Origin: a virus | IMG/VR virus record: IMGVR_UViG_3300008110_000023 | Location: 21,027-85,026 of that record | Length of the DNA: 64,000 nt | Direction: 5' to 3' (one strand) | In this document: one piece after another, positions 1 to 22,936 of the stretch | How positions within the stretch are numbered: position 1 is the first letter of the stretch | Layout: each line of letters begins with the position of its first letter | Notes under the pieces: generated by a model | The model's input: only the letters and a program-made list of their open reading frames with translations | Database searches by the model: none | Told to the model about the DNA's origin: nothing | Made by a program: the position numbers and the translations under genes

Positions 1-3000
1 ATTCAATCATTATCAGCGCTTAATTCAGCAGCTGAAGAAAACTTAGAAGGAGATGAGTTAATTGAATGGAATAACTATTATAATAGTATTACATCAGGAA
101 CTACTACTGAAGAAACAACTACTCCAAGTTCAGAAGATACTGCAACAAAAACTTTAAAAGATAACTTTAAAGCTGCTTTTGAAGAGTTTGATATTAATGT
201 ACAACAACAAACTCCTAAAGTTGAAAGAACTGATGATGAAAAATTAAGTGATAGAATACAAGCAGTTCTTGATTTACTTAAAGCTACTAAATTAAATACA
301 GCTACAGTTACTTTAGGACAAATAGTAGAAGAAGTAAACAAATTATTTGATAATGATATTGAGTATACTAAAAAGATATTCAATGACTTAAAGGATATTG
401 TAACTTTACTACAAAAAATGAGAAATAATCCTGAGTATACTTTAACTCCTAATTATACTTTATCTGATGCTGGTATTGTTGAAACAGGTATTACAATAGA
501 ACCTACTATACTCTCTGAAAAAACAAGTAGAGAAGCTAACGTAGAATTAATGTCTAGAGTAAGAGAAAATGATCCTACTCTTAACTTTATTATAGACGGT
601 AAAAAAATTGAAAGTATAGCATCTGTAGCCTCTAAAGCAATATCAGATGAAGGTACTGAAGTAGATGAAACCTTAGGAGTTTTTAGAACTATTTATAATG
701 AAGCTGGTGAATTAATATTTAATCCAAACCAGGACGCTATAGTAGATTCTAATTTTATTACTGAAGGAACTGTTATTACTATTAAAGTAGAAAAAGCTAC
801 AGGTAATATAGAAGAAGATGTTGATACTGCTGAAATAGCAATGTATGTTACTACTCCAGAAGGAGAAAGAAAAATAGGATATATACATTTACCTAGTTAT
901 GCAGGTGTACAAACATTAGCACAAGGAGAGTTATTACCATCTATACAAGAACAACTTACACTTATACAACAACTTAGAAGACAAGTATTAGAAAACCAAG
1001 ATTCTATTCTTACAACTACTGTAACTAAAAGAGGTTTTGGTAATGTAAATAAAAAAGGAAAAGATGCTAATGGTAATATACCAACATCTATCTTAAGTAA
1101 TGCTTTTGCTGGTGACACAAGAGTACATTTAGGTGTAGTAGGGCTTGTTGGTGAAAACAAGAAGATAAATAGAAATGATGAAAGTATTCCTTTATATCAA
1201 GCAACTGATTTAAAAGCAGGGGCATTAGTTATACTTTTACCACATCCAAGTGGAACTGTAGTACCTTACTATGCAATAAGCAATCCAATAGGAGCAGATA
1301 CTGGAGTTACTACTAAAGTAGTAAATACTTTAAAAGACTTCTTAGCACGTAAAATAGATAGAAAACAAACTACTATGGCTATTGAAAGATATGTCTATAC
1401 AGTTCCTGAAGGTAACATAGGCCGTAAAGGTATTGTTATAAAAGAACAAGATGGACAAAGATCTATTATAGTAGATGGTAAAGAAGTTAAAAATGATAAG
1501 AACTTTGCAGAGGTTATAGGTAGTGTATACTTTAACATGAATAAAAGTATCTTAAACTCTAAAGATGGACCTGCTTATGAGAAAGAGATAATGAATTCTA
1601 ACTTAGTGCGTACAGATGTACAAGCTAATCCTGTAACTTATACTAATGAAAGTGGTGAACAAGTAACTGAGAACTCTTATTTCCATCAAGTAACTACAGA
1701 GTTTAGTACTAACTTAAATAAAAGTGCTAAACCAAAAGTACAAACAGAAAGTACTGTATCTGATATAGAAAGAAGAAGACAAGGATTAAAAACTATAAAC
1801 GGCACTTTAAGAGTTGATTTAGGTGGATTTAGTATAGATAATGTATCTAAAGAATTTTATGACAATATACTTCATGCCACAGCAGATCCTTTTTATATAA
1901 ATTTAAAAAAATGGATTAATGAATTTAGAAAAACACAAAAACCATTTGCTGTTATAGATAGTTCTGAAATTATTAATAAATATAATGCAGAATTAGTTGC
2001 ATTAGAAGGTAAACCAGAAGAAACTGGTACTACTACTAAAGAAGAAGCAGAAAGACTTAAAGCTATAGAAGATGCTAAAGCATTTGGTTTTGAAGTAGAT
2101 GATGAATTAGAAGCAGATATTCCTACTATATTTGATACTCAGAATGATTTATCTGCAGAGCAAATAAGTATGATGAAGAATAATCCTACTACTCTATTAG
2201 TACATCCTGAGTTAAATGCAAGTACACAAAATGAAGCTGTATTAAGTATAGCTTATAAAGCATTAACTATAGAACCAGAGACTGAAGAAGTAGAAGGAAA
2301 AGAAGTATTAAAATCTACTAATAAAGAACTAGTTAAAGCTAACTTTATAGAAGGAGCAAGAGTACTTAACAACCTAGCAAAAACTAATCCTACTAATGCT
2401 ACTTATGCTAAAGCAGCTAAGACTATGTCTATAGTAGCAGGAGATGAAGTATTTGAAAAACTCTATGCAAAAGCAACTGAATTTATTAAAGAGATAGGAT
2501 TCTCTACTGAAGAAAGTGGTTTCTATAACCAAATGGAAGCTTTAGATGAAGTAGATGGAGAAGAAGAAAAGATAAATCAATTTATAGATGAAGCAGCTTC
2601 CTATGAAGATAGAAAGACTGGTGCATCTAAAAGATTTAAAAAATTCTTAGCTTTTATTCCAGCAATGGAACTAATAAAAGGAAAAGCAAAGGTATCTAGA
2701 AACTCTTTATTAATGCCTACTTTTAATAACTATGATAGTACTTTTACTATGATAGCTAATATACTTAGTGAGTATAACTACCCTAGTACTGCAGATGGTT
2801 TACAAATGATGATAAACAGACTGACTGCTACAGATATAAAGAATCCAGTTATAAAAGAAGTTGCTGCTAAGTTAGAAAAAGCCCCTCAAAAGATTAAAGT
2901 AGAGTTCTTTAACATCTTTAATCAACAACATGCTAAGTTTAAAACATTAAGACTATACTGGCAAAAAGCTAGAACTTTTAAATATTTCCACCAAGGAATA

Positions 3001-6000
3001 GGAGGAGAAGTAAAAACTAAATACGCTGAAAGATTAAAACCTACTTTAATTAACTCTGATAGAAATAAAGCACAAGAATTAGTAAGAGAAGAAATGCTTA
3101 CTAATTTTAAACAAAAAGGAGTTATTTTAAAAGCTGTTACTAATAAACTAGATAGAAAAACTAATAATACTACTTTAGAAGTTAACACTGAACACAATAA
3201 AGCTATTTATGATGCATTTGTTACTGCACTAAAAGATGATAGTAACTACCAAGTAGATAGTAGAGGTAAAGTAAATACATTATTTTTTACTGAGACTGGT
3301 TTTAAAACTATGTATGACTTACTTAGTAATACAGGTATTAGTATTTCAGAAAATGCATTTGAAGACTTTTTAAATAATCATATAACACAAGATGGTACAA
3401 GAGGTCATAAAGCTATTGCAGGTGAAGTTTTAGGAGTTATCCTAAAAAGTCTTGCTGGAGAAGGTACAGTTATTGATAGTGAAACTGTAGAAAATCCTTT
3501 TGAACTTAATAATCCTTTTTATACAGAAGGAAGTAGTATTAATATCTTAGCTAAGTATGAATACAATACAAGAACAGATGTATTTAGTTCTTCATTTAGA
3601 CATGCTGGTAAAAGTTTCTATACTTTTGTAAGACATACTCCTTTATCTGAATTAGTACTAAAGCTTAAAAATCCTTGGAGAGCTAATAAAAAAGAAAACA
3701 GTTTTATTAGAGGACTTATAACTAGAGATCCATTGTCTAAACATAGTCTGTGGTTAAACAAAATGGTTAATCCTACTAAAAAAGGAGATTCTGTTTTTGC
3801 AGATACATTTAATTTGTTCTATGAAAAAGGATATAGAGATAGTTCTGAAAAAGGATCTACTCCAAAAGACCTTAAGGATTCTATTGAAAAAGAACATGAA
3901 TTAAACAAAATAATTTCTTTCCAAGCACAAGGAAAAGACACTGTTGTATTCCATGCAGATACCCACTCAGATAAAACTACTAAAGCTTTTATACAAGCTA
4001 TTAAACAATCTGTTGATGGTTATACAGGAAATATAGAAGAAGGTATTCAATTATCTGATGATAGTTTAACTGATTTATATAGTTATTTCTTAGCAGAATA
4101 TGATAGGATATTACAAGTAAATGAACAAAATGAAGATCCTAATTTTCCTGCACATAAGAAATTAAAAGGATATCACGGTACTAAAGCAAAACCAGGTTTA
4201 GGAAGTGTATTTAATATGTACCATTTCTTAAACTATGCTGTATTAAAAGACACTAATGCAGATTTAGCAACAATGTTATTTGACTCTGAAGGTAATTTAA
4301 GAAATATACCTAAAGAAGATATGGCAGTAGTCTCTGGAATGGTTAAAGAAGAAATTAACAATAACTTTAATAGACTATTTAAAAAAGTAAAAGAAGACTG
4401 GAGTACTTTAGGTATATTCTTTACAGAAACTAACAAATTAGGGTATACTAGATTGAATATTAACTCCTACATGGATGCTAAATATTATGATAAAGTAGTA
4501 AACACACTTGGTATAGAAAATAAAGCTGTTAAGAAAGTAACAGAGAATTTTAATCAACCAGCAATAGATGCAGAAGTAGCAAAAATACTTGACTATGCTA
4601 TAGTTGATTATGTAGTTAACTACGCTATAGCTACTAATGAAATGCTTATTATAACAGGAGACCCTGCATTACATGGTAAACCTTCTAAAGATAAAGGTAG
4701 TATTAGTAGTAAAAATTGGGTATTAAAGTCTATTGCAGATACATTTATTAACGTAGGTAAACGTAATGCAAGATTACTGGCTTCTGGTAACAAAGGTATG
4801 TTTAGTAAACAAAAGTATAATGTTGCTTTTGTAAATGACATTGAAGAAGTTTCTGAACATGTAAGTGATTATGTATCATGGTTAAAAGAATTTGAACCTG
4901 ATTATATTAAAAAGAAATTTACTTCTAATATGACAGATGCCCAAGAGTTAACTACTGTTGAAGAGCATTTAGAAGTTATGCGTGCTTTTGGTAAAATAAC
5001 TGATAATCAATTTAAAACATTACTAGGTTTATATGATCCAGCTGCTTACAGAGATTTATACAAAGAAGAAGCTCCTGCATATACACAAAAGGAAGTATTA
5101 GAGAATTTAAAAACTGTAATGCAACCTATGAAACCTGTACAAGTACAAAGTGTATTGGACACTGATATTAAAGCTAATGTACAGTATTATATTAAAACAT
5201 CTTCATTCCCTATTATTCCTGCTTTAGTAAAAGGAAAACCTATGGAGTCTGTATTAAAACAAATGAAAGAAGCTAAAGTAGATAGACTTTCATTTGTATC
5301 TGCAGTTAAATTAGGAGAACATGGAGCTAAAAACTTATTTATAGAAGATAAACTTAATACAGAGTTATTTAAAGACAATGTAATTGAATTAGATAGAGAT
5401 GGTTTTAGTATACAGTTAGAAGTACCTTACAAAGAAAACAAAAAAGAAGTAAGAGAAGGTACCCAAAATATGAAACTATTGTTTATGGATTTACCTGATT
5501 CTTTAGAATTAGAATTATCTGAAGGAAACAAAACAGTAGAAGAAGCTAAAAGAGAATATAATAGAATTCATAAAGAAATCATAGATAGCGCTTTAACTAA
5601 GTTATTAGGAGACATAGGAGCAACTGTTACTGAAGATGAAGCAGGATTTAAATCTTATAAAATAAATGATTTTACTAATTTAAGTAAGATACTTAAAGAA
5701 GAAGGAGAATCTAGAGGATATTCAATTAACTCATTACTTGGTCTTGATTTAAATAAAGATGGTCAGTTTAAAATACCATTGACTTTTAACCCAAACTCTG
5801 CACAAATAGAACCTGTTATTACTGCATTATTAAGTAATAGATTAGTTAAACTTAAAATGCCAGGTAAATCCTATGTATTAGGATCTGAAGTTTTAACCTT
5901 AGAACCTTCAATAAATAAAGAAGGAAAACAGACTCAAGCAGATATTAATGTTATTAAAGATATTATATGGGTATCTGATAAATATAAAACACAAGGTAAA

Positions 6001-9000
6001 CTTAAATACTACAGAGAAGAAAACGGTAAACCAGCAATGGCACAAATTATCATGCCTGCTTATTTCTTAGATAAAGAAGGAAAGCAAATAGACATGACTA
6101 AGTTTGTAAAAAATGGTTTTTTAGATACTAGTAAAATAGATAAAGAACTATTACAAATAATGGGCTTTAGGATTCCTACACAAGGACATAACTCCATGAT
6201 GATGTTTGAAGTAGTAGGATTCTTACCTAAAACTAGTGGTGATTTAGTTATAGTTCCTGCAGAAATTGCTGCTCAAATGGGATCTGACTATGACGTAGAT
6301 AAATTATATACTTATCATTATAACTATTATGTAGGTTCAAAATCTGGTAAACTAAAAAAATACAGTAAACCAGGAAATATTAAAACAAAACAAAATAGAT
6401 TGCTTGAAATTCAATCAGCTATTATAATGAATAAAGAAGTAGCGCCTTATATTATGAATCCATTATCTATGGATGATTTAGCAGACGCTATTGTAGAATT
6501 AAATAAAGATAAAAAAGAAGAATGGATAGGTAACTATTCTACTTTATACCAAAGAAATACTTACTTTGATAATGCTGCTGGTAAAATTGGTGTAGGTATA
6601 TCTGCAAATGCTAATACTAATCACGCTGCTTTTCAACAGGCAGGTGTTTATGTTAAAGGAGGAGGCGTTGTATTCTTAAAACCTGACGGTACTCCATATA
6701 GTGATATTGAAAATAATGCTTATGAAAGTAATAGTGTTAGTAAATATAAAGAAGATAAATATACTTATCCTGATCCTTTTAGTGATGATATAATAGACAA
6801 TAAAAAAGATAACAATACTGCTTGGAGATTAGATAAAATATTTACTTTTGATGGTAAACGTATTTCTGATATTATATCTCAATGGCTAGGAGCTTCTGTG
6901 GATAATGCCAAAGAAAAACTACTAGGAGAAGGAGGTATTAATAAGTATAACTTTAATGTGTCTTTGTTAATAGCTAGAACTGGATTTGGTAATAATTGGA
7001 TTATACCTTTTATCAACCAACCTATCTTAAAAGAATATTATGCTATACTACAAAAACTAGAGGATAGTACTGAAAAGTCTTTTGAGGCAGGTAAAAAAGA
7101 AAAAGCAATAGAACAATTATTTAAAAAGTATACAGATTTATATAAAGTTGCAAATCCTAATGAAACTCCTGGAATACAAGGAGTAACATTACTTGAATTA
7201 AAAAGTTCTCTGAATAAGGAAATAAATGCAGATAATGCAGCAGCACAGTTAAATATATTAAAAGCTTTCTTACATTATGAAACTATTAGCTTAGAAGTAG
7301 GTACTGTACAAAAAGCATTAAATACTGATGTTAAGGGATTACCTAAAAATATAGCAGAAACTGCAGAAAAAAGAGATTTTATTAGTGAGCATGGGTATAA
7401 CTCTTCTGTATTAGGAAATGTAGGTAAAATAAGAGAAAAAGTAATATCAGGTGCTTTTATGGAAATACCTAGAATTGCTAGTCAATTATTTAATAGAAAA
7501 ACAGACGGTTCTTATGTATATGCTTATGATAGTTCTGCCTACAAATGGGTTAAAACAGGATTAGCACAAATAGCTAATAAAGAATTTAATACTGAACAAA
7601 TTAATTTAATACATAATAGTTTACAACAGTTTATTTATACTCACCCAGAATTAGGTTTATATGGGGATAATTATGAGGCAGAAAAACAAAGGTTATTATA
7701 CAATGAAAACCTAGCTGATAGATTATTGCAATTACAAGAGAAATACCCAAAAAACTATTTCTTAAGTAAAATAAGTGCTGTAATTGATACTAATGTTAAT
7801 AATCCTAAAAAGATTAAGATAATAAATACTACTGCAGAACAAAAGATCTTTATAGAGAGAATGCAACAAGAATGGGAATCTGCTTTTTATGCAGAACCAG
7901 AACTTGCCAGATTTGCAGAAGATATGGCTAAGTACACAATGATGTTTAATGCTAATCAATTTGGAGCTTCTAACTTAATAAAATACTTACCTTTTAACTA
8001 TCTTAACATTATAGGTGCAGGTAAAGTATTAAATGGTTTAGAATTAGAAGATTCTTTAAGTCTTATAAACTTTATACCACAATTCTTACAGCACAATCCA
8101 GAGTTTGCTCCTTTTGCTAAAGAAAGTAATTTCCTTGAAAATAGCGCAGTTTATAAAAAAGATGCTGATGGTAAAGATACTGATATTATAGAAGGATTTA
8201 AATTACCTAGTTTAGCTTTAGAATTTGATAAAAATGATGCACGTAATTTAATACAAATTATTAAAGTAGAAGGAGAAGAAATACCTGTATATCCAAGTTT
8301 CTTATCTGTATATGGAGGAGCTGAATTAGGAAGATTACTTTTTATAAAAGTAAATGAAGATTTTTATAGAAGAGTAGACACATTAGGAAATACTGATTTT
8401 ACTGAATATAACTTTAGTAAAAATGGTTTAGCTTCTACAATACTAGAAGAGCAAAAAGGTGTTGTAGATATTAACAAAAAAACAAATACTATAGAATCTA
8501 CTACAACTGATTTAGATCAACTTTATTTTACAACTTCAAGTGTTCATTCTTTACTAGAAAATATTGTTATTAGAAATACTTTTGCTACAGATCCTTTAGC
8601 AGAAGCTTATGGTGCCTTAGCAGAAAAACTACTAGAACAACCAGAAAATGGATATAGAGTAGTAGTTGATAATAGTATACCAGCAGTAGGAGCTCATAAT
8701 AGAGTAGAAAAATTAATTAAACTAAATAAAGAAGCTTTATTAAAAAATAATGAATTAGAAATACAACGTGTTATATTACATGAACTTATACACAAAGAAA
8801 CTGTAGCTAAATTAGTAGATAATAAATTCTTAGAAACAAAAGAAGGTCAAGCTATTACTAAAGTATTTAATAGTTTTAAAGAACAACTACAAAATAAAGC
8901 ATTATCTGATACTGAAAAAACTAGGGGTATTCCAAATGAATTCCTAGAAGCAGAAGTATTTAAGTTATTAACTGAGGCTAGTTTTGGAGAAAATAAAAAA

Positions 9001-12000
9001 GATTTAAATATACTATCTTTAAATAGAATTACTAATAGTGATATAAATAGTCCTGCTTTTAAAGAACTTATGAAGTCTTTATCTACTAATCTTGCTAAAG
9101 TAGATAAATTTAAAGCTAGTAGTAAATTAGAACCAGGTACTGAAAGATATGAAGCAGTTGCTAATTATATTAAAGATACTTTTACAGCAAATAATATTAA
9201 GGAATTAAAACCTAAATATTACATGTACACTAGTATTTTAGAGTTTGCTACTGAAGCTTTAACTAATACAAAGACTCAAGAGTATTTAAAAACATTTACT
9301 ACTATTAATCAAAAAGGAGAAAAAGTAAGTTTATGGAAACAGTTTATAGATGCTTTAACTACTTTACTTAAGTTTAATAATGTAAATAGAACATTAGCAG
9401 AAGATGCTATTGAAAGTATTATAGATGTAATTGATTATGGTAAACCAGCTGAGATAATTACTCCACCATCTATTAGTGTTAAAACTTTTGATAAAAAAAA
9501 TCTATTTAAAGTAACACCTATACAAACTGCTGACAAAAAAGCAACTATCAAAGCCAGTATAGCTACTCAATATATTGGTTTTGGTGAAGGCATTGCAGGA
9601 AGTTCTACAGAACTATATAGACAACAAGCTGGAGCTTTAGCTAATACAGGTAACTATTCTGTTAATGATGTAATATTTGTATCTGTTCCTGGTAGAAGAG
9701 GTACTGAAATACAACAAAAAACACAACAAGATAAAACTATTAAAGAAGCTATTAAAGCTGTAGAAGCTGGAGCTACAATCCTTACAGATAATAAAGCTTA
9801 TATTGATTCTAATTCTTATAACACAGGAGAAAAAAGACTTTATAATGCTATGAAAGAACAAGGTTATGACTATTCTGAAATTATAATTGACGGTCAACTT
9901 ATTGGTACTTGGAGTAAACCTACTCAACCAGTTACTGAAGTAGTAGAAACTAAAGAAGTTATAAATAAAATATCAACTCCTATATTAAGTAAAAAATTAG
10001 TATATACTGTATATAATCCTATTAGTGGAAAAAATCAAACTAAAAATGGTTATAAATTAACTATTCCTGAATTTCCAAATTTTGAAGGTTATATTACACA
10101 AGAAGAAATAACACAAGAAAGTAAAGAAGGAAAACCAGAACTTAATAAAAAAACAAAAGAATGGACTATAGAAATAGTACATCCAACTAAAGGAGTACTG
10201 AATTTTCCTGTAGGCTGGGCAAAAACTAAAAAAGAAGTTATAGATACTTTTGTTAATGATATTAATGAAAAACATTCTAAATCAGAAGAAGGTAAAAAAA
10301 TATTGCAAGAAATTGGTATTGATTTTATTGGCATACAACCACAAGTTGAAGTAAAAACAACAGAAGTTATATTAAAATACTATGGTGCTTATTACAAATA
10401 CAATATTGATAAAGATGGTAACCAAGTAGGAGCTTCTTTATATTCTCAAAATGGAGTAGATTATATAAGTACTTCTAGAGATTATGCTTCTATAATAGCA
10501 AGTAATAACTACACTAATGCAACTACTGGTGAAGTATTTGGTAAACCAAAAGAACCTGTAATAATACCTGAAGAAGAAGGAGATAATGCTAAATATGAAT
10601 TGTTTCCTGGAGTATTTGCCAATGAAGGACAGAAAGAAGCTTTAGATAAACTAGATTCTTTTATGGCATCTACAGGTAAAGATAATGAAGCCTTTGTATT
10701 AGTTGGAAGAGGAGGTACTGGTAAGACTACTATTATTAAAAAGATGATAGGTAAATTTCCAAATTTAAGAATAGGAGGAGCAACTGTATCACATGCAGCT
10801 AAAGATATCTTAGGAAATTCTATTGGAAAAGGAAATGCATTTACTTTAGCTAGTTTATTAGGAATAAAATTAGATGAAACTACAGGTAAATTTGAAATTG
10901 ATGGTTTTAGTAGAAGAACAAAAGGAATTCCTATTGAAAAATTAGACATTATTATAATTGATGAATGTTCTATGGTTTCTGATTTATTGTTTGAAGAATT
11001 ATTTAAATATAAAAAACCTAGTGCTAAAATTATCTTTATGGGAGATAATGTCCAATTAGCTCCTGTAGAACAAGAAACAGATTCTATTACTTTTAAAGCT
11101 AATAAAAACCCAAATAATTTTGCTAAGTTAACAGAACCTATGAGATTTAGTGCTGAAAATCCTATTTTTGCATTGTCTTATATAGTAGCAGATAACGTAG
11201 AAGCTCCTGAAAGTAAAGTATATACTATCCCACAATCAAGTAGAGTAACTACTTTAAAAGAAGATACTGGTATTATATTTACTAATAGTGAAGAAACTGC
11301 TTTATCTATGTTGGTAGAAGACATTAAACAAGAACTTGAAAAAGAAGTTCCTAATACAAAAGCAGTAAAAGCAGTTACTTTTAATAATGAATTAAATAAT
11401 GCTACACAATCTGTTAAAAATCTTAATCTTAAAATAAGACAAAAATTATGGGGAGAAGAAGCTAAAAATCAATTTAATATAAATGAACTTTTAACTGCTT
11501 ATTCTACTTTTGGAGGAGAAAATCCTGCCTTTTATAACTCAGAAAACCTTATAGTAAAAGAAGTGTCTGAAGTAAAAGATGTTGAATACAACATAGGTGT
11601 GTTTGATTTTAAATTTAAAACTGTTTATTTAACTTTACAAAAAAGTGATGGTACAATAGTAAGTAATATACCAACAGTTGCCAAAGAAGATTTAGAAAGA
11701 TACAATAAAGAAGTAAAGGCTTTAAAATCAAATCCTGATGGAAGAATAAAATCAATAGGTTTTAAATTATCTGAAGAATTAGCTAATTTACAATATGGCT
11801 ATGCTGTTACTTCTCATAAAGCACAAGGTAGTACTTATACTAATGTATATGTTTTTGAAGACAATATCTTAGGCAATAGTAATTTAAGTGCCCCAAAAGA
11901 TAAAAACAGAGCTTTATATACAGCTATTACTAGAGCTAGTAAAAAACTAGTATTAATGGGTAAGTTTAATATAAACAATGAGATGAATAATCTTAATGAT

Positions 12001-12063
12001 ATTGATATTTTCAGTACCTTTGATGATGAAACACTTGATAAACAAATAAAAGCTTGTGAATAA
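1..12063 (+). CDS. Giant virion RNA polymerase polyprotein (crAss-type two-barrel RNAP + zincin protease + C-terminal SF1 RecD/Dda-like helicase); 5' end lies outside the window
   Basis: Frame 1 is open from base 1, so the ATG at 418 is internal. RNAP motifs GFRIPTQ...QMGSDYDVDKLY (DxDxD at 6286-6300). HELIH zincin motif (8779-8793) with downstream EFATEA. Helicase motifs GRGGTGKT (10705-10728), IIDECSM, GDNVQLAPV, YAVTSHKAQGSTY, LYTAITRA. Confidence 0.9.
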   Translation: MQSLSALNSAAEENLEGDELIEWNNYYNSITSGTTTEETTTPSSEDTATKTLKDNFKAAFEEFDINVQQQTPKVERTDDEKLSDRIQAVLDLLKATKLNTATVTLGQIVEEVNKLFDNDIEYTKKIFNDLKDIVTLLQKMRNNPEYTLTPNYTLSDAGIVETGITIEPTILSEKTSREANVELMSRVRENDPTLNFIIDGKKIESIASVASKAISDEGTEVDETLGVFRTIYNEAGELIFNPNQDAIVDSNFITEGTVITIKVEKATGNIEEDVDTAEIAMYVTTPEGERKIGYIHLPSYAGVQTLAQGELLPSIQEQLTLIQQLRRQVLENQDSILTTTVTKRGFGNVNKKGKDANGNIPTSILSNAFAGDTRVHLGVVGLVGENKKINRNDESIPLYQATDLKAGALVILLPHPSGTVVPYYAISNPIGADTGVTTKVVNTLKDFLARKIDRKQTTMAIERYVYTVPEGNIGRKGIVIKEQDGQRSIIVDGKEVKNDKNFAEVIGSVYFNMNKSILNSKDGPAYEKEIMNSNLVRTDVQANPVTYTNESGEQVTENSYFHQVTTEFSTNLNKSAKPKVQTESTVSDIERRRQGLKTINGTLRVDLGGFSIDNVSKEFYDNILHATADPFYINLKKWINEFRKTQKPFAVIDSSEIINKYNAELVALEGKPEETGTTTKEEAERLKAIEDAKAFGFEVDDELEADIPTIFDTQNDLSAEQISMMKNNPTTLLVHPELNASTQNEAVLSIAYKALTIEPETEEVEGKEVLKSTNKELVKANFIEGARVLNNLAKTNPTNATYAKAAKTMSIVAGDEVFEKLYAKATEFIKEIGFSTEESGFYNQMEALDEVDGEEEKINQFIDEAASYEDRKTGASKRFKKFLAFIPAMELIKGKAKVSRNSLLMPTFNNYDSTFTMIANILSEYNYPSTADGLQMMINRLTATDIKNPVIKEVAAKLEKAPQKIKVEFFNIFNQQHAKFKTLRLYWQKARTFKYFHQGIGGEVKTKYAERLKPTLINSDRNKAQELVREEMLTNFKQKGVILKAVTNKLDRKTNNTTLEVNTEHNKAIYDAFVTALKDDSNYQVDSRGKVNTLFFTETGFKTMYDLLSNTGISISENAFEDFLNNHITQDGTRGHKAIAGEVLGVILKSLAGEGTVIDSETVENPFELNNPFYTEGSSINILAKYEYNTRTDVFSSSFRHAGKSFYTFVRHTPLSELVLKLKNPWRANKKENSFIRGLITRDPLSKHSLWLNKMVNPTKKGDSVFADTFNLFYEKGYRDSSEKGSTPKDLKDSIEKEHELNKIISFQAQGKDTVVFHADTHSDKTTKAFIQAIKQSVDGYTGNIEEGIQLSDDSLTDLYSYFLAEYDRILQVNEQNEDPNFPAHKKLKGYHGTKAKPGLGSVFNMYHFLNYAVLKDTNADLATMLFDSEGNLRNIPKEDMAVVSGMVKEEINNNFNRLFKKVKEDWSTLGIFFTETNKLGYTRLNINSYMDAKYYDKVVNTLGIENKAVKKVTENFNQPAIDAEVAKILDYAIVDYVVNYAIATNEMLIITGDPALHGKPSKDKGSISSKNWVLKSIADTFINVGKRNARLLASGNKGMFSKQKYNVAFVNDIEEVSEHVSDYVSWLKEFEPDYIKKKFTSNMTDAQELTTVEEHLEVMRAFGKITDNQFKTLLGLYDPAAYRDLYKEEAPAYTQKEVLENLKTVMQPMKPVQVQSVLDTDIKANVQYYIKTSSFPIIPALVKGKPMESVLKQMKEAKVDRLSFVSAVKLGEHGAKNLFIEDKLNTELFKDNVIELDRDGFSIQLEVPYKENKKEVREGTQNMKLLFMDLPDSLELELSEGNKTVEEAKREYNRIHKEIIDSALTKLLGDIGATVTEDEAGFKSYKINDFTNLSKILKEEGESRGYSINSLLGLDLNKDGQFKIPLTFNPNSAQIEPVITALLSNRLVKLKMPGKSYVLGSEVLTLEPSINKEGKQTQADINVIKDIIWVSDKYKTQGKLKYYREENGKPAMAQIIMPAYFLDKEGKQIDMTKFVKNGFLDTSKIDKELLQIMGFRIPTQGHNSMMMFEVVGFLPKTSGDLVIVPAEIAAQMGSDYDVDKLYTYHYNYYVGSKSGKLKKYSKPGNIKTKQNRLLEIQSAIIMNKEVAPYIMNPLSMDDLADAIVELNKDKKEEWIGNYSTLYQRNTYFDNAAGKIGVGISANANTNHAAFQQAGVYVKGGGVVFLKPDGTPYSDIENNAYESNSVSKYKEDKYTYPDPFSDDIIDNKKDNNTAWRLDKIFTFDGKRISDIISQWLGASVDNAKEKLLGEGGINKYNFNVSLLIARTGFGNNWIIPFINQPILKEYYAILQKLEDSTEKSFEAGKKEKAIEQLFKKYTDLYKVANPNETPGIQGVTLLELKSSLNKEINADNAAAQLNILKAFLHYETISLEVGTVQKALNTDVKGLPKNIAETAEKRDFISEHGYNSSVLGNVGKIREKVISGAFMEIPRIASQLFNRKTDGSYVYAYDSSAYKWVKTGLAQIANKEFNTEQINLIHNSLQQFIYTHPELGLYGDNYEAEKQRLLYNENLADRLLQLQEKYPKNYFLSKISAVIDTNVNNPKKIKIINTTAEQKIFIERMQQEWESAFYAEPELARFAEDMAKYTMMFNANQFGASNLIKYLPFNYLNIIGAGKVLNGLELEDSLSLINFIPQFLQHNPEFAPFAKESNFLENSAVYKKDADGKDTDIIEGFKLPSLALEFDKNDARNLIQIIKVEGEEIPVYPSFLSVYGGAELGRLLFIKVNEDFYRRVDTLGNTDFTEYNFSKNGLASTILEEQKGVVDINKKTNTIESTTTDLDQLYFTTSSVHSLLENIVIRNTFATDPLAEAYGALAEKLLEQPENGYRVVVDNSIPAVGAHNRVEKLIKLNKEALLKNNELEIQRVILHELIHKETVAKLVDNKFLETKEGQAITKVFNSFKEQLQNKALSDTEKTRGIPNEFLEAEVFKLLTEASFGENKKDLNILSLNRITNSDINSPAFKELMKSLSTNLAKVDKFKASSKLEPGTERYEAVANYIKDTFTANNIKELKPKYYMYTSILEFATEALTNTKTQEYLKTFTTINQKGEKVSLWKQFIDALTTLLKFNNVNRTLAEDAIESIIDVIDYGKPAEIITPPSISVKTFDKKNLFKVTPIQTADKKATIKASIATQYIGFGEGIAGSSTELYRQQAGALANTGNYSVNDVIFVSVPGRRGTEIQQKTQQDKTIKEAIKAVEAGATILTDNKAYIDSNSYNTGEKRLYNAMKEQGYDYSEIIIDGQLIGTWSKPTQPVTEVVETKEVINKISTPILSKKLVYTVYNPISGKNQTKNGYKLTIPEFPNFEGYITQEEITQESKEGKPELNKKTKEWTIEIVHPTKGVLNFPVGWAKTKKEVIDTFVNDINEKHSKSEEGKKILQEIGIDFIGIQPQVEVKTTEVILKYYGAYYKYNIDKDGNQVGASLYSQNGVDYISTSRDYASIIASNNYTNATTGEVFGKPKEPVIIPEEEGDNAKYELFPGVFANEGQKEALDKLDSFMASTGKDNEAFVLVGRGGTGKTTIIKKMIGKFPNLRIGGATVSHAAKDILGNSIGKGNAFTLASLLGIKLDETTGKFEIDGFSRRTKGIPIEKLDIIIIDECSMVSDLLFEELFKYKKPSAKIIFMGDNVQLAPVEQETDSITFKANKNPNNFAKLTEPMRFSAENPIFALSYIVADNVEAPESKVYTIPQSSRVTTLKEDTGIIFTNSEETALSMLVEDIKQELEKEVPNTKAVKAVTFNNELNNATQSVKNLNLKIRQKLWGEEAKNQFNINELLTAYSTFGGENPAFYNSENLIVKEVSEVKDVEYNIGVFDFKFKTVYLTLQKSDGTIVSNIPTVAKEDLERYNKEVKALKSNPDGRIKSIGFKLSEELANLQYGYAVTSHKAQGSTYTNVYVFEDNILGNSNLSAPKDKNRALYTAITRASKKLVLMGKFNINNEMNNLNDIDIFSTFDDETLDKQIKACE

Positions 12064-12064
12064 T

Positions 12065-15000
12065 ATGGATTGTCCCAATTTAAATTTAAAATTCTATAAG
12101 AAGTTAACTTCTCAGTTTGGTAAGAAAACTGCCTATCAATGGCATAATATTATAAAAACTGAGAGGTTTATAACCTGGTTTGGTTTTGGCAAAGTAGATA
12201 GTGAAGGTATGCCTAATATTGACAGGTTTGGTAACATTACTAATGGTAAAAGCCAAACTTATAGGGTATTAGGTAAAAGTAACTTTAACAGTGTTAAGGA
12301 CTTAACTAACTTCTTATCTAGTAATTATACTGAAGGTATTAGATTATATAAAGGTAGTTACTACTTAGCTAAAACTATGGATAGTAGAGAGTATGGTAGA
12401 GCTACTTTAGAAAGTCTAAATAAGCATTATCCAGGACTAATAACTCAATTACCAGTAAGTGATAATGTTTTAAAAGCAGATTATACACACAGACTAGAGA
12501 TCAATAAAAACTATTTTAATAAGCCTAACTTAGAAGAACAATTTGATATAGATGTAGATGCATTACCAGACATGCCAATGCAACTTACTAATATACCTAG
12601 ATTAGAATCTGGAGAAAAAACTATAAGTATAAGACCTACTAATTATAGAACAGGTATATATAAGTATGGAGATAAAGCTTATAAAATAAGTAATAAAGAT
12701 ACATGGAACGTTGATGAATACCTTGATTTTCATAATATTACTTTAGAAGAACTTATAGAAAGATTTTCAGGAGATGATCAAATTAAATATGAACATATAC
12801 AAGATTGGTTACAAGGTAAAGGACCTAAAATGTATGTATATGAAATTAATAGGAATATTGATGAAAATGATGTTAATACATTTACTGATGATCCAAGATA
12901 CACATCTGAGATTAAAAGATTAGAATTATTAGTAATTAAATTAGAAAGAAGAAAAAAACTATCTACTTTATCAGCTAATGAAAAAGAGTCTTTAAGACTA
13001 CAAATTAAAGATTTAAAAGACACAATTAAAGAACTTAAAGATGATGCTAGTAGGAGTTTATCTTTAATAATAAGTAATGCAGAAACACATATAGCACAAG
13101 TAAGAAATATATTAGCTAAAGAAGTTAACTATCATAATGTAACAAGTTCTTTAGAGTTAGTAATGCCCTATATACAACTATTTAATGAATTTACTGAATT
13201 AACAGCAGTAGAACAAAAAAAGGTAGATGCTCTTATTGCTGCTATTAGTAAATTAGAAGCAGAAGCTAAGAAAGCAATGGCTATAAAAGCTAATAGTGTA
13301 GTAAGAAATGTAGTAGGAAAAGAAATTCTAATTAATGGAGTTGCTATTCCAGTTAAAGATGATAATACTATATCAGCATATTCTTTAGGATCTTCTAATT
13401 CTACTAATGCTATAGCTCAGACTATAACTAAAAAGATAAAAGATGTAGAAAATACAGTTGATTCTGAAAACAGATTCTTTTTAGAAGAACATGAAAGACT
13501 TGTACAAGAATTAAAAGAATACCAAAAAGCAAAAGGTATTAAAGAAGAAGACATGTATAGATATATGATACAAGAAGATCATGAAGGAAATCCAAATGGT
13601 CTTTTTGTAGGAGCTTTAAACTCTGGATACTATGAAGCACAAAAAGAAGCTAAAAGTAAAAGTCTTGTTGATTTCTTAAAATTCTTAGGTAAAGAACACA
13701 CTCTTTCTGTAAATGAAGAAAAGTTTGATGCTTATAAAGAAAGTATAAAAAAATGGGCAGATGATCAAACATGGATAGCATCTCCTAAATCAGGAAAAAC
13801 TAATGAAGAATATAAACAAAGTGTAATAACTAAGAAAATAAACCAAGCTAATCCTCAGACTTTAATAAATATTGTTAACAAATTACAAGAGGGAAAAACT
13901 ATTACTTATGGAGAAACAAAGTTTGTAGATCAGTTTTTGAAAAACAATAACATGCGTCTATTAAACAAACAAGCTCATAGTAAATGGAAAGATGGTAAGT
14001 ATGATACTATTATGGAGTTAGATGAAGACAATCCTCTTAAAAAGTTTTATACGCATTTTACTACTAATATAAACAAAGGTAGAAGAGAACTTGGTGAGTT
14101 CTTTGATGAAAGGTATTTACATTACAATTATATTCCAGAAGTAAGTAAAAATAGCAGTTTCTTTAGAGAGATTGGTAATAAACTTAAGAATTCATTCACA
14201 GAGTTTCCTAACCATAGTAGTGTTACTGATACTGATATTATAACAGGAAGAGCAATGCATCAAATACCTGTATGGTCTTTATCTGGTAAAATGGATGCCT
14301 CTCAAAAATCATATGATTTAGGTAATGTACTAAAAGTATTTACAGCTCAGAAGTTTAATAAGATATACAAAGAACAAATACAAGATGATGTTAATTTACT
14401 ACTTACAGTATTAAATGAACAAGAAATGTATGAAACTGATAGTAAAGGTAATATTATTGAACAAATAGTTGGAGGTAAAAAAGTACCTGTAATTAAAAAG
14501 AATCCTAATAGTAATACTTATAAAGCTGCTCAATATTTAGTAGATTCTAATATCTATGAACAAAGACAGAATAAAGATGGTGTATTAATGACTATCTATG
14601 ATAAGGATACTAAAGAAAGATTAGCAGAGTATGTTAAAATACAAAAAGAAAGAGGTTATTCAGATGCTGATATAAATAAAAACAAATATGTTGGTTTAAA
14701 AGAAACTGAAATTAATGAGTATCAAATAATAGAAAAACAATATAAAGAAGTTACTGGTAAAAAGATAGCTAATAACCTTATATATTTAACTACTTTAAAA
14801 GGATTAGCTTTAAATCCATTCTCAGGTATATCAGAGTTTATTCAAGGGTTAACATCTGTATTTACTGAAGCAGCTGGTAATGAATTTTATAGTGATGCTA
14901 ATGCTAAAAGAGCTTTAGGTTTAATACTTCATTCTACTAATCCTAAAATCAATAGAAAGAAAATACAACAACTATTAGGAGTATTTGGCTTAGATGAAGC

Positions 15001-16320: not shown

Positions 16321-16702
16321 GTCTTACATAATTACCTTCTATGATATTTTCTATATGGTCAGTATCTAGGTCTTTAATATGTTTCCATATAGTACCTTCT
16401 TCTATCCATTTACCTTCTTTGGTATAATTAATTCCCCAGAATAAACATTCTCTTCTAGTCTCATGATTTTCATCATCCATTACAGATAAATCTTCATAGT
16501 CAAAAACATCTGCTGTTCTTCTTAAGTAATTAAGACCTCCATCTACACAATATCTTCTACCATTAGCATCTATATGGCATACATAATCATGCCTATATTT
16601 ACTTACAATAACAGTACCATCTGGAGTTCTAATTGCATTATATAAAATTCTAACTTTATTAGATTCTATTTTTACTTCATAATTTTTTTCACTAGCATCC
16701 AT
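16250..16702 (-). CDS. Conserved phage hypothetical protein
   Basis: NAIRTPDGT..S..RHDY...VDGG..YLRR pattern typical of a widespread phage family. Confidence 0.65.
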   Translation of the reverse strand: MDASEKNYEVKIESNKVRILYNAIRTPDGTVIVSKYRHDYVCHIDANGRRYCVDGGLNYLRRTADVFDYEDLSVMDDENHETRRECLFWGINYTKEGKWIEEGTIWKHIKDLDTDHIENIIEGNYVRHVPFYDEVFRDELKYRRNVKTSS

Positions 16703-17159
16703 GTTCAGGTATATTATTTATTCCAGTACTACCAAAGCCACCATTACCTCTAATAGTGTTATCTAGATCATCTACTTCTTTAAGTACACAACCACTTAAT
16801 TTATTAAAAACTCCTTGTGCTATCCTATCTCCATGGTTTACTACAAATTTGTATTGTCCATGGTTAATTAAGATAATACCAATAGGTCCTCTATAATCAC
16901 AATCTATAGTACCTGGACTATTAAGTACAGTTACTTGATTATTTAATGCTAAACCACTTCTTGGTCTTATTTGTAATTCAGTACCTATTGGTAATTGCAT
17001 AGCTAATCCAGTTGGTATTAACATACTATGGCCAGGTTCTAATACTACAAAGTCTTTTTCTGCATCTAAGCATGCATATAAGTCAAACCCAGCTGCGCCA
17101 GGAGTGGCATATTCTGGGATTTGTGCAAACTTACTTAACTTCTTTACTTTTATTCTCAT
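16692..17159 (-). CDS. dut: Trimeric dUTPase
   Basis: AAGFDL, RPRSGLA, GTIDCDYRG, DRIAQ and RGNGGFGSTG motifs. Confidence 0.96.
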   Translation of the reverse strand: MRIKVKKLSKFAQIPEYATPGAAGFDLYACLDAEKDFVVLEPGHSMLIPTGLAMQLPIGTELQIRPRSGLALNNQVTVLNSPGTIDCDYRGPIGIILINHGQYKFVVNHGDRIAQGVFNKLSGCVLKEVDDLDNTIRGNGGFGSTGINNIPEHGC

Positions 17160-17177
17160 GTGTTTTAGTTTTAAATG

Positions 17178-18257
17178 TTATTTATCTAGCCTTATACCTA
17201 CCATTACTGGAAATCTTGGTAATCCATCATCTGTATACTCAAAGAATCTTATCTCTGCAGTTTTACCAATATAGTCTTGTTTATTAATTAATAGATCTTT
17301 TCTTTCATCATGTGACAACTTAGTTCCTGCTCTAAATGTACCTTGAGGTATATTTAATACAGGAATACCCCATTCTGGTCTAGCTTCTGCAGGTATAATA
17401 TCTATAACTTCAGCTGTAATATCTTGAAAGTCTTTGTACTTTAATAAATTACTAGATCTAGCATCTACTTTATAGTTTGTATTACCATGTCTAAGAATAG
17501 TACCTTCATAACCTTCTTTAATAAACTGCATATGATATTGCTTTAATTCTTTCTCTGAGTTAATCTTGTAAGTTGTTACCAATAACAAAGAATTACTATT
17601 AATAGTCTCTACTATCTTGTTTAACTTAGACAATCTTTCTATGTATGGTAGTTGTTCAACTAAGTCATACACATGTAGAACAACTGTCTCACTTTTGGCG
17701 GGATTATACTTTTTAATGAGACTCATGTTCTCCTGGAAAGTATTACCATGTGCGTATAACTCACCGTCTAAGATAACATCATCTGCTAAGTTACTTAAGA
17801 TAGCTTTAATATGATCCATGTTCTTTATCTGCTCTCCTTGTCTAGAAATAAGCTGTACTTCTCCATTAACTTTATAAGCAAGACATCTCATACCATCTAA
17901 CTTAGGTTGTACACAAACAAATGCATTCCAATCTACTTTTTTAGCCTCTTTATTATAATCTTTAGCTAACATAGGTAAGATAACCTCTTTAGTTTGTGCT
18001 TCTTGTTCTGTGTAGAAATAACCCTCTGTTAATTTTTCAGCTAACTTAGAACTCATTTCTAACAGTGCTTGTTCTTGTGGTGTAGTAACATTACTTTTAC
18101 CTACATTCTTACTTGTACAAACTTTCCTATGGAAAATGGGATTTTCTGTATTTACAACACCAGATTCTTGTATAAAACAATCTCCTTCAGCGCTAAGTAC
18201 TACATATCTTATTTTACCTTTAGTATCTTTCTTATAAAGTGTTACTGTTGATTCCAT
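17178..18257 (-). CDS. ATP-dependent DNA ligase
   Basis: QPKLDGMR (KxDG), LDGELY, EGTILR, LLKYK and C-terminal PRFP. Confidence 0.93.
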   Translation of the reverse strand: MESTVTLYKKDTKGKIRYVVLSAEGDCFIQESGVVNTENPIFHRKVCTSKNVGKSNVTTPQEQALLEMSSKLAEKLTEGYFYTEQEAQTKEVILPMLAKDYNKEAKKVDWNAFVCVQPKLDGMRCLAYKVNGEVQLISRQGEQIKNMDHIKAILSNLADDVILDGELYAHGNTFQENMSLIKKYNPAKSETVVLHVYDLVEQLPYIERLSKLNKIVETINSNSLLLVTTYKINSEKELKQYHMQFIKEGYEGTILRHGNTNYKVDARSSNLLKYKDFQDITAEVIDIIPAEARPEWGIPVLNIPQGTFRAGTKLSHDERKDLLINKQDYIGKTAEIRFFEYTDDGLPRFPVMVGIRLDK

Positions 18258-18474
18258 CTTTAATAATTTTAATTAAATTTATATCTAAAAAATAATCACA
18301 ATGATTAATAGCATAATCAAATGGTTGATTATTAAAGAATAATTTTTTTTCTAAGTTTTCAACATCAGTGTACCTAAGACATTTTAACTTCTTAGGACAC
18401 TCATGATCATTGCATAATGTATACTTCATATTAAATATGTTTCCATAAATCTTTTCTAACAATCTTATGTACAT
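18232..18474 (-). CDS. Small Cys-rich hypothetical protein
   Basis: CxxxxCPxxxxCxRY...CxYF; likely starts at MKYTLC (~18429). Confidence 0.55.
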   Translation of the reverse strand: MYIRLLEKIYGNIFNMKYTLCNDHECPKKLKCLRYTDVENLEKKLFFNNQPFDYAINHCDYFLDINLIKIIKDGINSNTL

Positions 18475-19195
18475 GGCCTTTAGTTATTCCATACTTAGCT
18501 ACTAACTCAGGAATTGTATATCCTTGTTCTCTAAGTTTTCTTAATTCAAGTACTTGTTCTTCATTGATTTTAGAAAATCTGTTTTTACTGCCTGTTAATT
18601 GTGCTCTCTTTTGAACTATCCTATTTATTACAACAGCCTTTCTATCTTCTTCAAAGTCTTTTCTAATATCTTTTCTAATTCTTGTTAGCCATTCTCTGAT
18701 AGTCTTTTCTTTACCACTTGTTATTTCAACAACTTCAAGAGTATTATAACCTTGTATATACAATTTCAAAATTGTAGATTGATTTTTATTTTTATGGTTA
18801 TCAATATACTCTGTTAAGTCTTTTGCAAATAATCTACTTTCTGGAGTATCCAATGAAGGTATTTGGTAAAAGATATTATTAACTTCAGTATCATCATTCT
18901 CATGTTCTTCTGTAATAAAATCAGAAAATGGTAATTCTACTCCTCTTATTCTTGCTATGGAAGCCACTCTATGTTTTAATCTAAAAGCTCTATGTTTAGC
19001 TATTTTAACTAAAAAGGCTTTTAGTGCTTGTACGGATAAAAATTCATTAGTTGTGTTCTTAACATACTTATGAAATTCAATATAAGCTTCTTGAATGGCA
19101 TCTTCACATAAATTAAATTCATATTTACTATTAAGTAGACAAGTCATTAAATATGTCCTGTACTTATTAAAATCATAAATGTTAGCTTCTATCAT
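18431..19195 (-). CDS. ECF/sigma-70-like factor (regions 2 and 4) with an extra C-terminal HTH
   Basis: Region 2-like CEDAIQEAY...LKAFLVKIAKHRA and region 4-like ILKLYIQGYNTLEV...EKTIREWLTRIRK. C-terminal SKINEEQV.ELR...TIPELVAKYGITKGHVHKIV HTH. Confidence 0.7.
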   Translation of the reverse strand: MIEANIYDFNKYRTYLMTCLLNSKYEFNLCEDAIQEAYIEFHKYVKNTTNEFLSVQALKAFLVKIAKHRAFRLKHRVASIARIRGVELPFSDFITEEHENDDTEVNNIFYQIPSLDTPESRLFAKDLTEYIDNHKNKNQSTILKLYIQGYNTLEVVEITSGKEKTIREWLTRIRKDIRKDFEEDRKAVVINRIVQKRAQLTGSKNRFSKINEEQVLELRKLREQGYTIPELVAKYGITKGHVHKIVRKDLWKHI

Positions 19196-19196
19196 A

Positions 19197-19442
19197 TTAT
19201 TGCATTATTTCATCAATGTTAATATTATTTTCATCATATAAATTCATTATCTTTTGAAATACAATATCTAATACTTCATATGGATTAGTTATAGTAGATG
19301 TTTCTATTTCACTTTCAAGAGTTCTTTTAAGGTTATATTGTACTTGAAATAGTACACAAGCCATATCTAATGCTTTTAAGCATCTTAAATGTTCCATTCT
19401 CTCTTCTGGTTCATTTAAATCAAATTCTATTTTTGCTATCAT
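19197..19442 (-). CDS. Hypothetical protein
   Basis: ORF track; tightly packed in the operon. Confidence 0.6.
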   Translation of the reverse strand: MIAKIEFDLNEPEERMEHLRCLKALDMACVLFQVQYNLKRTLESEIETSTITNPYEVLDIVFQKIMNLYDENNINIDEIMQ

Positions 19443-20965: not shown

Positions 20966-20967
20966 AA

Positions 20968-22676: not shown

Positions 22677-22684
22677 TATTTATG

Positions 22685-22935: not shown

Positions 22936-22936
22936 T

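Follow-up and report, generated by a model that had tools for sequence, protein, structure and literature searches.

A crAss-like phage virion RNA polymerase gene that also encodes a zincin-like domain and, as an optional add-on, an SF1B helicase

What is a DNA helicase doing near the end of a virion RNA polymerase chain? The question is posed by the genome of an uncultured, divergent freshwater crAss-like phage (record contig of 85,026 bp with a 114-bp terminal direct repeat), of which we analyzed a stretch of 64,000 nucleotides, hereafter the window. On the + strand, frame 1 has no stop between the first base of the window and the TAA at 12061-12063, and the start of the gene lies 2,235 nt before the window (full gene L001:792-15089, 4,765 codons, unbroken); its first 745 codons, including a gp67-like N-terminus (full aa 45-256), therefore lie outside the window. 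In a single chain this giant gene encodes an RNA polymerase, a protease-like (zincin) domain and a motif-complete SF1B helicase. The features, in window positions, are listed here with the evidence for each; P0003 and P0004 are the two closest relatives of the giant protein.

1-12063, + strand: window part of the giant gene (open frame; the gp67 match lies upstream of the window)
2035-7359 (full aa 1424-3198), + strand: RNA polymerase module of the crAss type, phi14:2 gp66/QDE-1-like (6VR4 match with gp66 aa 33-1756 aligned; motifs)
8407-9438, + strand: zincin-like domain, homologue of the N-terminal part of phi14:2 gp65 (gp65 match, AlphaFold model, fold matches)
9484-10002, + strand: cassette 1, an alpha/beta domain of about 150 aa with no Pfam family (model, homologue clusters)
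10003-10617, + strand: cassettes 2-3, small units of no recognized family (Pfam; 62% identity to P0003 and P0004)
10618-11973, + strand: SF1B (Dda/RecD2/Pif1-like) helicase with all core motifs (Pfam, PHROG, structure alignment, motifs)
11974-12063, + strand: C-terminal tail of 29 aa, conserved (86-97% identical in P0003 and P0004), followed by the stop codon
12065-16009, + strand: downstream gene of about 1,314 aa, homologue of the C-terminal part of phi14:2 gp65 (gp65 match; its ATG is one base past the giant-gene stop)

The C-terminal tail contains one of the only two cysteines in the giant protein.

TerL, portal and MCP were all found in the source genome (the MCP shares 34-35% identity along its entire length with those of cr108_1 and phi14:2), and the giant gene closes the block of virion genes, with a gene order as in FpV4, cr118_1 and phi14:2. 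Two genes could be joined in this way by chimeric assembly or an overlooked frameshift, since the sequence was assembled from a metagenome and public runs cover it at low depth. The earlier note had described the frame as uninterrupted, and our checks by contig tiling and by collinearity with relatives found no break in it. Window positions 7000-12300 are tiled by contigs of 100% identity, free of indels and joints, from three freshwater/lake runs of two studies (this support is only partly independent, because the best of these runs may be the sample behind the window assembly); P0003 and P0004 are collinear with the giant chain over its whole length; and the same join recurs in dozens of independent assemblies and in GenBank MT774379. 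Because the tiling shows no joint and the two relatives are collinear along the chain, mis-assembly or a hidden frameshift in the giant gene is very unlikely, and we give an artefactual joining of two genes almost no weight. Of the listed public runs that carry the stretch, none is recorded as RNA.

The RNA polymerase module is of the crAss virion type, a gp66/QDE-1-like two-barrel enzyme by its sequence. The motifs from which a catalytic loop had previously been read were located (RIPTQ at 6169-6183 and GSDYDVDK at 6280-6303), and homology to phi14:2 gp66 extends from them across the polymerase body. As a single sequence the module matches gp66 (PDB 6VR4, chain residues 48-1769) with E 3e-19, and a profile of eight relatives matches it with E 2.5e-53 over gp66 1209-1766, aligning DYDVD to the gp66 DFDID; alignment A1 shows no variation at the metal-loop aspartates D196, D198 and D200. 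The alignment to gp66 aa 33-1756, like the homologies to gp65, gp67 and FpV4 gp32 given below, comes from local searches run without filters (phmmer --max). A scan of IMG/VR with the polymerase region as a single sequence gave no match, and an alignment-based scan was needed to recover the relatives.

HELIH at 8779-8793, the sole HExxH in the giant protein, marks a domain that sequence and model identify as zincin-like and as a putative metallopeptidase, a zincin having been proposed. In the AlphaFold model (pLDDT 80-90) a three-stranded sheet (strands 126-148) is followed by a helix (158-178) that carries HELIH, and phi14:2 gp65 aa 127-359 match full aa 3548-3891 with an iE of 3e-4 at the HExxH region. 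The top fold match, the PhiM1 ejectosome protein 8vb2_A (Z 10.1), is the only one above the caution line; those to SPRTN (6mdx, Z 6.0), anthrax LF (5.5) and the minigluzincins abylysin and selecase (4-4.8) fall below it and may reflect a mere common arrangement. A SprT-like Pfam match to this region reaches 18.7 bits, under its cut-off of 25.6. Searching deposited phages by tblastn with the zincin region gave no match, and its homology to gp65 and FpV4 gp32 is visible only in the unfiltered local searches.

Between the zincin-like domain and the helicase lie the three cassettes, for which Pfam returned nothing under E 0.01. Cassette 1 is confidently modeled (pLDDT 92.8) and has homologues in 557 representative clusters, 111 of them at E<=1e-30; all its structural matches from Foldseek on PDB, VIA-align wide and BFVD are of a generic Rossmann-like kind (best Z 5.4), and ESM Atlas gave no usable match. 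Its place in the chain is taken by other sequence in P0003 and P0004, with an AlkB-like domain there in the nearest relative, and NADAR or ART (ART-PolyVal) domains are seen in other relatives of the giant protein.

The helicase itself is an intact SF1B enzyme of the Dda/RecD2/Pif1-like kind with two RecA-like domains, as judged from sequence. A complete SF1 helicase had been placed at about 10590-11970; we find it at about 10618-11973, with all core motifs present: Walker A GRGGTGKT (10705-10728), motif II IIDECSM (10954-10974), motif III GDNVQLAP (11041-11064) and the later motifs V and VI, TSHKAQGS (11809-11832) and YTAITRA (11917-11937). Pfam reports AAA_30 (6e-17) and UvrD_C_2 (1e-11), with AAA_19 and PIF1 also above cut-offs; PHROG 325 (Dda-like) matches with E 7e-66; and the domain was aligned to the structures 9kwf, 8jx6, RecD2 3e1s and Dda 3upu. 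Compared with P0003 and P0004, it is about as well conserved (79-80% identity) as the polymerase core (85%), and the zincin is 68% identical.

The architecture of the chain becomes legible against phi14:2. The giant chain is collinear with the phi14:2 proteins, running from the gp67 N-terminus (gp67 aa 50-286 match full aa 45-256, E 7e-8) through gp66 to the zincin part of gp65, and the rest of gp65 corresponds to the next gene (gp65 aa 642-1406 match aa 473-1301 of its product, E 1.3e-6). Both phages thus have the same module order (gp67 N-terminus, gp66 DxDxD, gp65 HExxH, gp65 C-terminal part) at the same place, the end of the virion block; in phi14:2, however, the first three modules are separate proteins, and the giant chain has some 875 aa extra (the three cassettes and the SF1B helicase) between the gp65 halves. 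No helicase is present in gp65-gp67, and no SF1 helicase gene is annotated in the phi14:2 genome stretches examined. All three of gp67, gp66 and gp65 are marked in NC_021806 as virion proteins detected by MS/MS. Because homologues of these detected proteins lie on either side of the helicase, its co-packaging with the virion proteins is plausible.

Two further phages bracket this arrangement. In the cultured Flavobacterium phage FpV4, gp32 (4,287 aa) has the polymerase and then a homologous zincin in one chain with the same flanking gene order, but it lacks a helicase and ends about 220 aa past the HExxH, where the cassettes of our phage begin; the FpV4 relatives of the Fpv1 type have a stand-alone SF1 helicase instead. 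The uncultured human-gut phage cr118_1 (Besingivirus coli, Suoliviridae; MT774379/NC_055872) has a 4,946-aa ORF annotated as 'DNA helicase' or 'exonuclease V'; its product, too, is a giant protein of the virion block in which a gp66-type polymerase is joined to an SF1B helicase at the C-terminal end, and the genome has no second strong SF1 helicase. That helicase, in contrast, is only about 30% identical to ours and belongs to another helicase clade, and the cr118_1 HExxH lies upstream of the polymerase rather than downstream of it.

Across the phage group the helicase comes and goes. It is present on 43 of 119 giant RNA polymerase homologues and absent from 76, a distribution that the RNA polymerase tree explains with no fewer than 18-23 gains or losses, and its position in the chain differs among relatives (in L010 it lies between two polymerase halves). 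The sister phages L051 and L054, from one sample, differ only in helicase presence. Among 45 near-complete related genomes, 17 (nine with a completeness rating of 100%) lack an SF1 helicase altogether and 14 have only a stand-alone SF1 helicase, a replication-module gene; none of the 14 genomes with a fused helicase has a second strong one. This mutual exclusivity is significant when relatedness of the genomes is ignored (Fisher p = 0.0016), but among eight relatedness-aware independent pairs the stand-alone state differs in about two (p >= 0.25, with few informative pairs), and the genomes that lie closest to a fused one mostly lack an SF1 helicase in either form, so that no 'substitution' of one form by the other is demonstrated. 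Some helicase-bearing giant proteins, such as P0006, give no RNA polymerase match. Because it is present in only part of the homologues, has been gained or lost many times, varies in position and is missing in any SF1 form from 17 of 45 genomes, the helicase is a common, optional and movable add-on and no built-in part of the polymerase.

In the helicase tree, the giant-gene helicase falls in a clade of 38 sequences, all on giant proteins (support 99), which joins the stand-alone SF1 helicases of gut crAss phages (the Carjivirus gp14 group; support 96), with three non-crAss phage helicases outside this combined group; the tree is from a quick search, and support at its root is weak (75). Carjivirus communis gp14, a stand-alone helicase of the crAss replication module, is thus of the same family. 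Stand-alone crAss helicases were never found beside a fused copy in the genomes surveyed. They differ from the giant-gene helicase in being separate proteins of about 450-490 aa (about 26% identity to it) that adjoin the UDG and DNA polymerase genes and are made after the onset of infection, whereas the giant-gene helicase would be borne by the particle.

We favor reading the giant gene product as a polyvalent, beads-on-a-string virion protein in which the SF1B helicase is accessory cargo doing the job of the stand-alone SF1 helicase, and put the probability of this reading at a little over one half (about 0.55). Three virion proteins of the phi14:2 type would have been fused in order, with swappable cassettes and the intact helicase appended before the stop. 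By analogy with gp66 and its neighbors, the chain would be made late, packed in the capsid and ejected with the DNA, after which the injected polymerase would transcribe early genes. Either in cis or once cleaved off, the helicase is predicted to act as a 5'-3' single-stranded DNA motor on the incoming phage DNA, its likeliest job being that of the replication-module helicase (roadblock clearing, and aid to replication or recombination), ready-made at time zero. With its several unrelated enzymatic domains around a zincin-like hub, its virion context, its domain shuffling among relatives and its expected entry into the cell alongside the DNA, the large multidomain chain fits the architecture of known polyvalent injected proteins, which combine a virion RNA polymerase, a zincin and other enzymes and may include a helicase, as in P1 DarB (PMC5512222); N4 vRNAP is such a beads-on-a-string protein, in which an HExxH domain follows the polymerase (PMC13434306). 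Our case differs from these in its two-barrel gp66/QDE-1-type rather than T7-like polymerase and its Dda-like SF1B rather than SNF2 or UvrD-like helicase; Iyer et al. 2017 (PMC5512222) did not cover crAss-type polymerases.

The earlier note had gone further, proposing that a DNA translocase delivered with the polymerase might open promoters or pull in the genome; the single chain and its three modules stand, but a general cis-helicase mechanism of this kind is not supported, given the distribution described above. In the form of this idea closest to the biochemistry, the helicase would open double-stranded DNA in cis and feed single strands to the gp66-type polymerase, much as QDE-3 serves QDE-1. 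Recombinant gp66 works well on single-stranded and denatured DNA and poorly on native double-stranded DNA, and QDE-1 depends on the QDE-3 helicase and RPA (bioRxiv 10.1101/2020.03.07.982082); the covalent link in 43 homologues, the L010 insertion and conservation close to that of the polymerase core also speak for it. We nevertheless think it unlikely. The helicase-less majority of homologues, the genomes with no SF1 helicase and the L051/L054 pair all count against it, and the phi14:2 polymerase works in vivo with no helicase in gp65-gp67. In 14 genomes, moreover, the helicase is the replication-module gene, which would be absent before the injected polymerase acts because it is expressed only afterwards. 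Given this patchy and movable presence, the polymerase family needs no cis helicase, and the helicase would be accessory cargo rather than an obligatory DNA-opening subunit. That the cis motor is the missing opening factor in the helicase-bearing lineages, as a counterpart of the QDE-1/QDE-3 pair, seems to us a shade less probable again; if it were so, the injected chain alone would unwind and transcribe native double-stranded DNA, and relatives lacking the helicase would need a factor from the host or one packaged separately.

Equally doubtful is a role in which the injected helicase and cassettes shield or remodel the entering DNA against restriction, RecBCD-type nucleases and bound host proteins. 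The polyvalent architecture, with its zincin hub and exchangeable enzymatic cassettes (AlkB-like, NADAR and ART in relatives), and the patchy, fast-turnover presence typical of conflict genes would suit it, and the P1 Dar proteins, among them the injected methylase-helicase DarB, offer an analogue (PMC5512222). The helicases of polyvalent proteins have so far been SF2/SNF2 or UvrD-like, not Dda-like (PMC5512222), and the nearest kin of the giant-gene helicase are crAss replication-module helicases. We regard as still less probable that the helicase is freed in the producing cell (by the zincin, a host protease or an internal start), acts there in late replication, recombination or packaging and stays out of the particle. 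Drobysheva et al., who reported fusions of the gp65/gp66/gp67 type as one 'huge polyprotein', expect cleavage of fused forms (bioRxiv 10.1101/2020.03.07.982082), P1 DdrB is cleaved before packaging (PMC5512222), and our helicase lies at the far C-terminal end behind flexible linkers, with a TAnnTTTG box at 10245. Such boxes, however, occur at chance frequency (68 in 64 kb, about one per kb), no full Bacteroidetes-type TTG-N19-TAnnTTTG was found within the giant gene, and the sole in-frame ATG near the helicase start (10663) would cut into the domain; N4 vRNAP is packaged uncleaved (PMC5512222), and the helicase sits between the halves of the gp65 homologue, both of them virion protein in phi14:2.

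The possibility that the fusion is common and already described is borne out in its first half, by the 43 homologues and the RefSeq cr118_1 entry, but not in its second: our literature search found no paper on the RNA polymerase-helicase join, although such domains may be depicted in Yutin et al. 2021 (Figure 3). Annotation of such 15-kb genes as 'DNA helicase' or 'exonuclease V' hides the polymerase. Initiation on double-stranded DNA by crAss-type virion polymerases is an unsolved problem, because recombinant gp66 prefers single-stranded templates, and natural polymerase-helicase fusions offer an easy system in which to test it; an optional, movable helicase would be at most one lineage-specific solution to DNA opening. 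More broadly, the crAss-type virion polymerases are hubs around which polyvalent proteins are built with rapid exchange of cassettes, and a replication-type helicase can shift from an expressed gene to pre-packed cargo.

On the plus strand a frame runs without a stop from base 1 of the window to the TAA at 12061-12063. The window covers bases 21027-85026 of the source IMG/VR virus contig (85,026 bp, with a 114-bp terminal direct repeat), in which the frame starts at an ATG another 2,235 nt before window base 1 and encodes 4,765 aa. The uninterrupted frame with RNA polymerase (RNAP), zincin and SF1 helicase described in the earlier note is borne out. The modules are as follows (full-protein numbering; window residue equals full-protein residue minus 745).

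aa 45-256, + strand: gp67-like N-terminus (N-terminus of gp67 of Cellulophaga phage phi14:2, E 7e-8)
aa 1424-3198, + strand: gp66-type RNA polymerase (PDB 6VR4, E 3e-19)
aa 3548-3891, + strand: zincin domain (matches the HExxH part of phi14:2 gp65; sole HExxH of the protein)
aa 3891-4284, + strand: cassettes, three small units (no Pfam family)
aa 4285-4736, + strand: SF1B helicase (all core motifs present)
after the helicase, + strand: C-terminal tail of 29 aa (86-97% conserved in the nearest relatives)
starting 1 base past the giant-gene stop: next gene (C-terminal part of gp65, E 1.3e-6)

These matches give the chain the order gp67N-gp66-gp65N, and they place the cassettes and helicase between the two halves of a gp65 homologue. 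An RNAP profile built from eight relatives matches gp66 at E 2.5e-53, with our DYDVD aligned to DFDID of gp66, and the similarity of aa 45-256 extends to cr108_1, where they match the beginning of the first giant protein in the virion block. The gp32 protein of the cultured phage FpV4 stops about 220 aa past its HExxH, exactly where our cassettes start, and, unlike our chain, contains no helicase. In the NC_021806 record gp65, gp66 and gp67 all have MS/MS proteomic support as virion proteins. The 4,765-residue chain (L001:792-15089 on the source contig) contains only two cysteines, one in helicase motif II (DECS) and one as the penultimate residue; the downstream gene has a cysteine at residue 3.

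The surrounding genome is laid out as in crAss-like phages: TerL, portal and major capsid protein, then tail and virion genes, then the giant gene, with a replication module on the opposite strand (PolA, primase, DnaB-like helicase, ligase, ATPase, and a second helicase matching PHROG 16, 'DNA helicase'). Along its entire length the capsid protein shares 34-35% identity with the cr108_1, phi14:2 and crAss001-like counterparts, and all 125 of the 125 records it matches are crAss-like phages. Public runs containing the window sequence are freshwater or lake metagenomes.

A frameshift or mis-assembly between the domains is very unlikely. Contigs from three runs in two studies (the best-matching of which may be the window's own source sample) tile window positions 7000-12300 at 100% identity with no indels and no joints, and the closest metagenomic relatives of the giant protein, P0003 (5,153 aa) and P0004 (4,873 aa), are collinear over the whole chain. 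In the same freshwater runs, single contigs end loosely within the cassette region (about 9604-9693, 10241 and 10377), a hint that strains carrying different cassettes co-occur.

Cassette 1 (window 9484-10002) is a conserved domain of roughly 150 aa with an alpha/beta architecture (confident model, pLDDT 92.8), in which certain K, Y, N, D, G and E residues never vary. It has no Pfam family, and a fold search of PDB and BFVD gave no clear match (top Z 5.4, generic Rossmann-like). Representative clusters containing it number 557 (111 at E<=1e-30); it can sit anywhere within giant phage proteins or form a stand-alone protein of 140-230 aa. Over window 9484-10600, cassette 1 is replaced by different sequence in both P0003 and P0004; the latter bears an AlkB-like 2OG-Fe(II) oxygenase domain (PF13532), absent from our protein. 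At the IMG/VR locus L072, the same domain precedes the helicase in a separate helicase ORF (E 6e-57), so the two modules can move together. For the zincin domain (window 8497-9420; AlphaFold pLDDT 80-90, HExxH helix preceded by a three-stranded sheet), the top structural match is 8vb2_A (Z 10.1 over 154 aligned residues), from the pre-infection ejectosome of the Pectobacterium podophage PhiM1; the unrelated zincins SPRTN, anthrax lethal factor and minigluzincins scored lower, in a range possibly reflecting a common arrangement only. That the closest solved structure is an ejectosome chain suggests that a related HExxH module occurs in ejection proteins of unrelated podophages.

The RNAP-helicase join is present in RefSeq and frequent in metagenomes. 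A helicase-based search of proteins of 2.6-8.3 kaa gave 93 clusters, about 80 of which also match our RNAP core, and an RNAP-based search, which carries no helicase bias, gave 119 giant homologues, 43 with a helicase (C-terminal of the RNAP in 41, N-terminal in one). Among the best 80 RNAP loci in IMG/VR, 21 have a helicase within 10 kb: 19 within the RNAP frame, and two (L072:17375-20035 and L068:14079-16535) as a distinct ORF of 819-887 aa that closely follows the RNAP gene. In the relative L010:2-16204 (IMG/VR UViG_3300037191_001756), the helicase and about 1.2 kaa of other sequence separate the two RNAP halves; the insertion point, slightly before the catalytic loop, lies between the equivalents of our aa 2708 and 2743. 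A survey of 50,697 deposited phage genomes yielded the join in cr118_1 (Besingivirus coli) only. Its 4,946-aa virion RNAP (ORF 16381-31221, MT774379 / NC_055872) is labelled only 'DNA helicase' by GenBank and 'exonuclease V' by RefSeq, and the annotation of this ICTV-classified crassvirus hides the polymerase. Fusion of gp65, gp66 and gp67 homologues is already reported, as are the zincin and polyvalent-protein helicases, the helicases being of SNF2 or UvrD type. The earlier note had named, as an outcome that would refute it, the fusion proving common and already described; the former holds, and for the latter our literature search found no description of a gp66-type RNAP joined to a Dda-like helicase. 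The present gene is thus one more instance of a common, apparently undescribed variant.

In a tree of 76 helicases (quick IQ-TREE search, rooted on three non-crAss phage helicases, root support 75), ours falls within a clade of 38 (support 99), all on giant proteins, which joins (support 96) a mixed group of other fused helicases, including that of cr118_1, and SF1 helicases encoded on their own in gut crAss phages (Carjivirus gp14, cr8_1, cr11_1); stand-alone helicases of the Fpv1 type occupy lower branches. By this placement the fused helicase has long resided in giant virion proteins and is related to the replication-module helicase of crAss phages. It is 79-80% identical to those of P0003 and P0004 (RNAP core 85%, zincin 68%) and 47% to that of P0021, a more distant relative (RNAP core 51%); conservation nearly at the level of the RNAP core, and above the zincin, argues for an active enzyme.

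The virion carries gp66, which passes into the cell and performs early transcription; as a recombinant protein it works well on single-stranded or denatured DNA and poorly on native dsDNA (bioRxiv 10.1101/2020.03.07.982082). The earlier note had listed promoter opening among the possible roles of the helicase. As a general requirement, DNA opening for the polymerase is excluded by the census and the tree, in which the helicase is optional and often absent. On a FastTree of 119 RNAP cores, at least 23 gains or losses of the helicase are required (at least 18 counting well-supported branches only), and 6 of the 14 members of the smallest supported clade around our protein have it. Across 45 near-complete relatives (Pfam AAA_30 search over whole records), the helicase is in the giant frame in 12 and in a mid-sized virion-block ORF in 2, with no second strong AAA_30 match in any of these 14; another 14 have a stand-alone helicase alone (441-522 aa), and 17 have no SF1 helicase, 9 of which are rated 100% complete. 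Fused and stand-alone forms exclude one another in raw counts (Fisher p = 0.0016), with p >= 0.25 over phylogenetically independent pairs, of which too few are informative. Genomes that are sister to fused ones usually lack an SF1 helicase altogether: the sister phages L051 and L054 (IMG/VR 3300025018_000003 and _000004), from one sample and with near-identical RNAP cores, comprise one with a 3,105-aa RNAP-helicase chain and one (rated 100% complete) with no SF1 helicase in its whole record. Comparative evidence of this kind says that the helicase is a non-obligatory part of the RNAP machine; DNA opening for the polymerase is possible within helicase-bearing lineages.

Polyvalent proteins are described as having zincin hubs and swappable enzymatic domains, and include injected helicase bearers such as P1 DarB (PMC5512222); the N4 virion RNAP has a beads-on-a-string build and is believed to cross the tail in unfolded form (PMC13434306); and for phi14:2 a zincin-like domain is present in gp65 and cleavage is expected for fused gp66 forms (bioRxiv 10.1101/2020.03.07.982082). 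We propose that the chain is a polyvalent ejection protein of this type with the helicase as accessory cargo; the helicase would most probably fill the role of the stand-alone SF1 helicase, arriving with the particle at the outset of infection.
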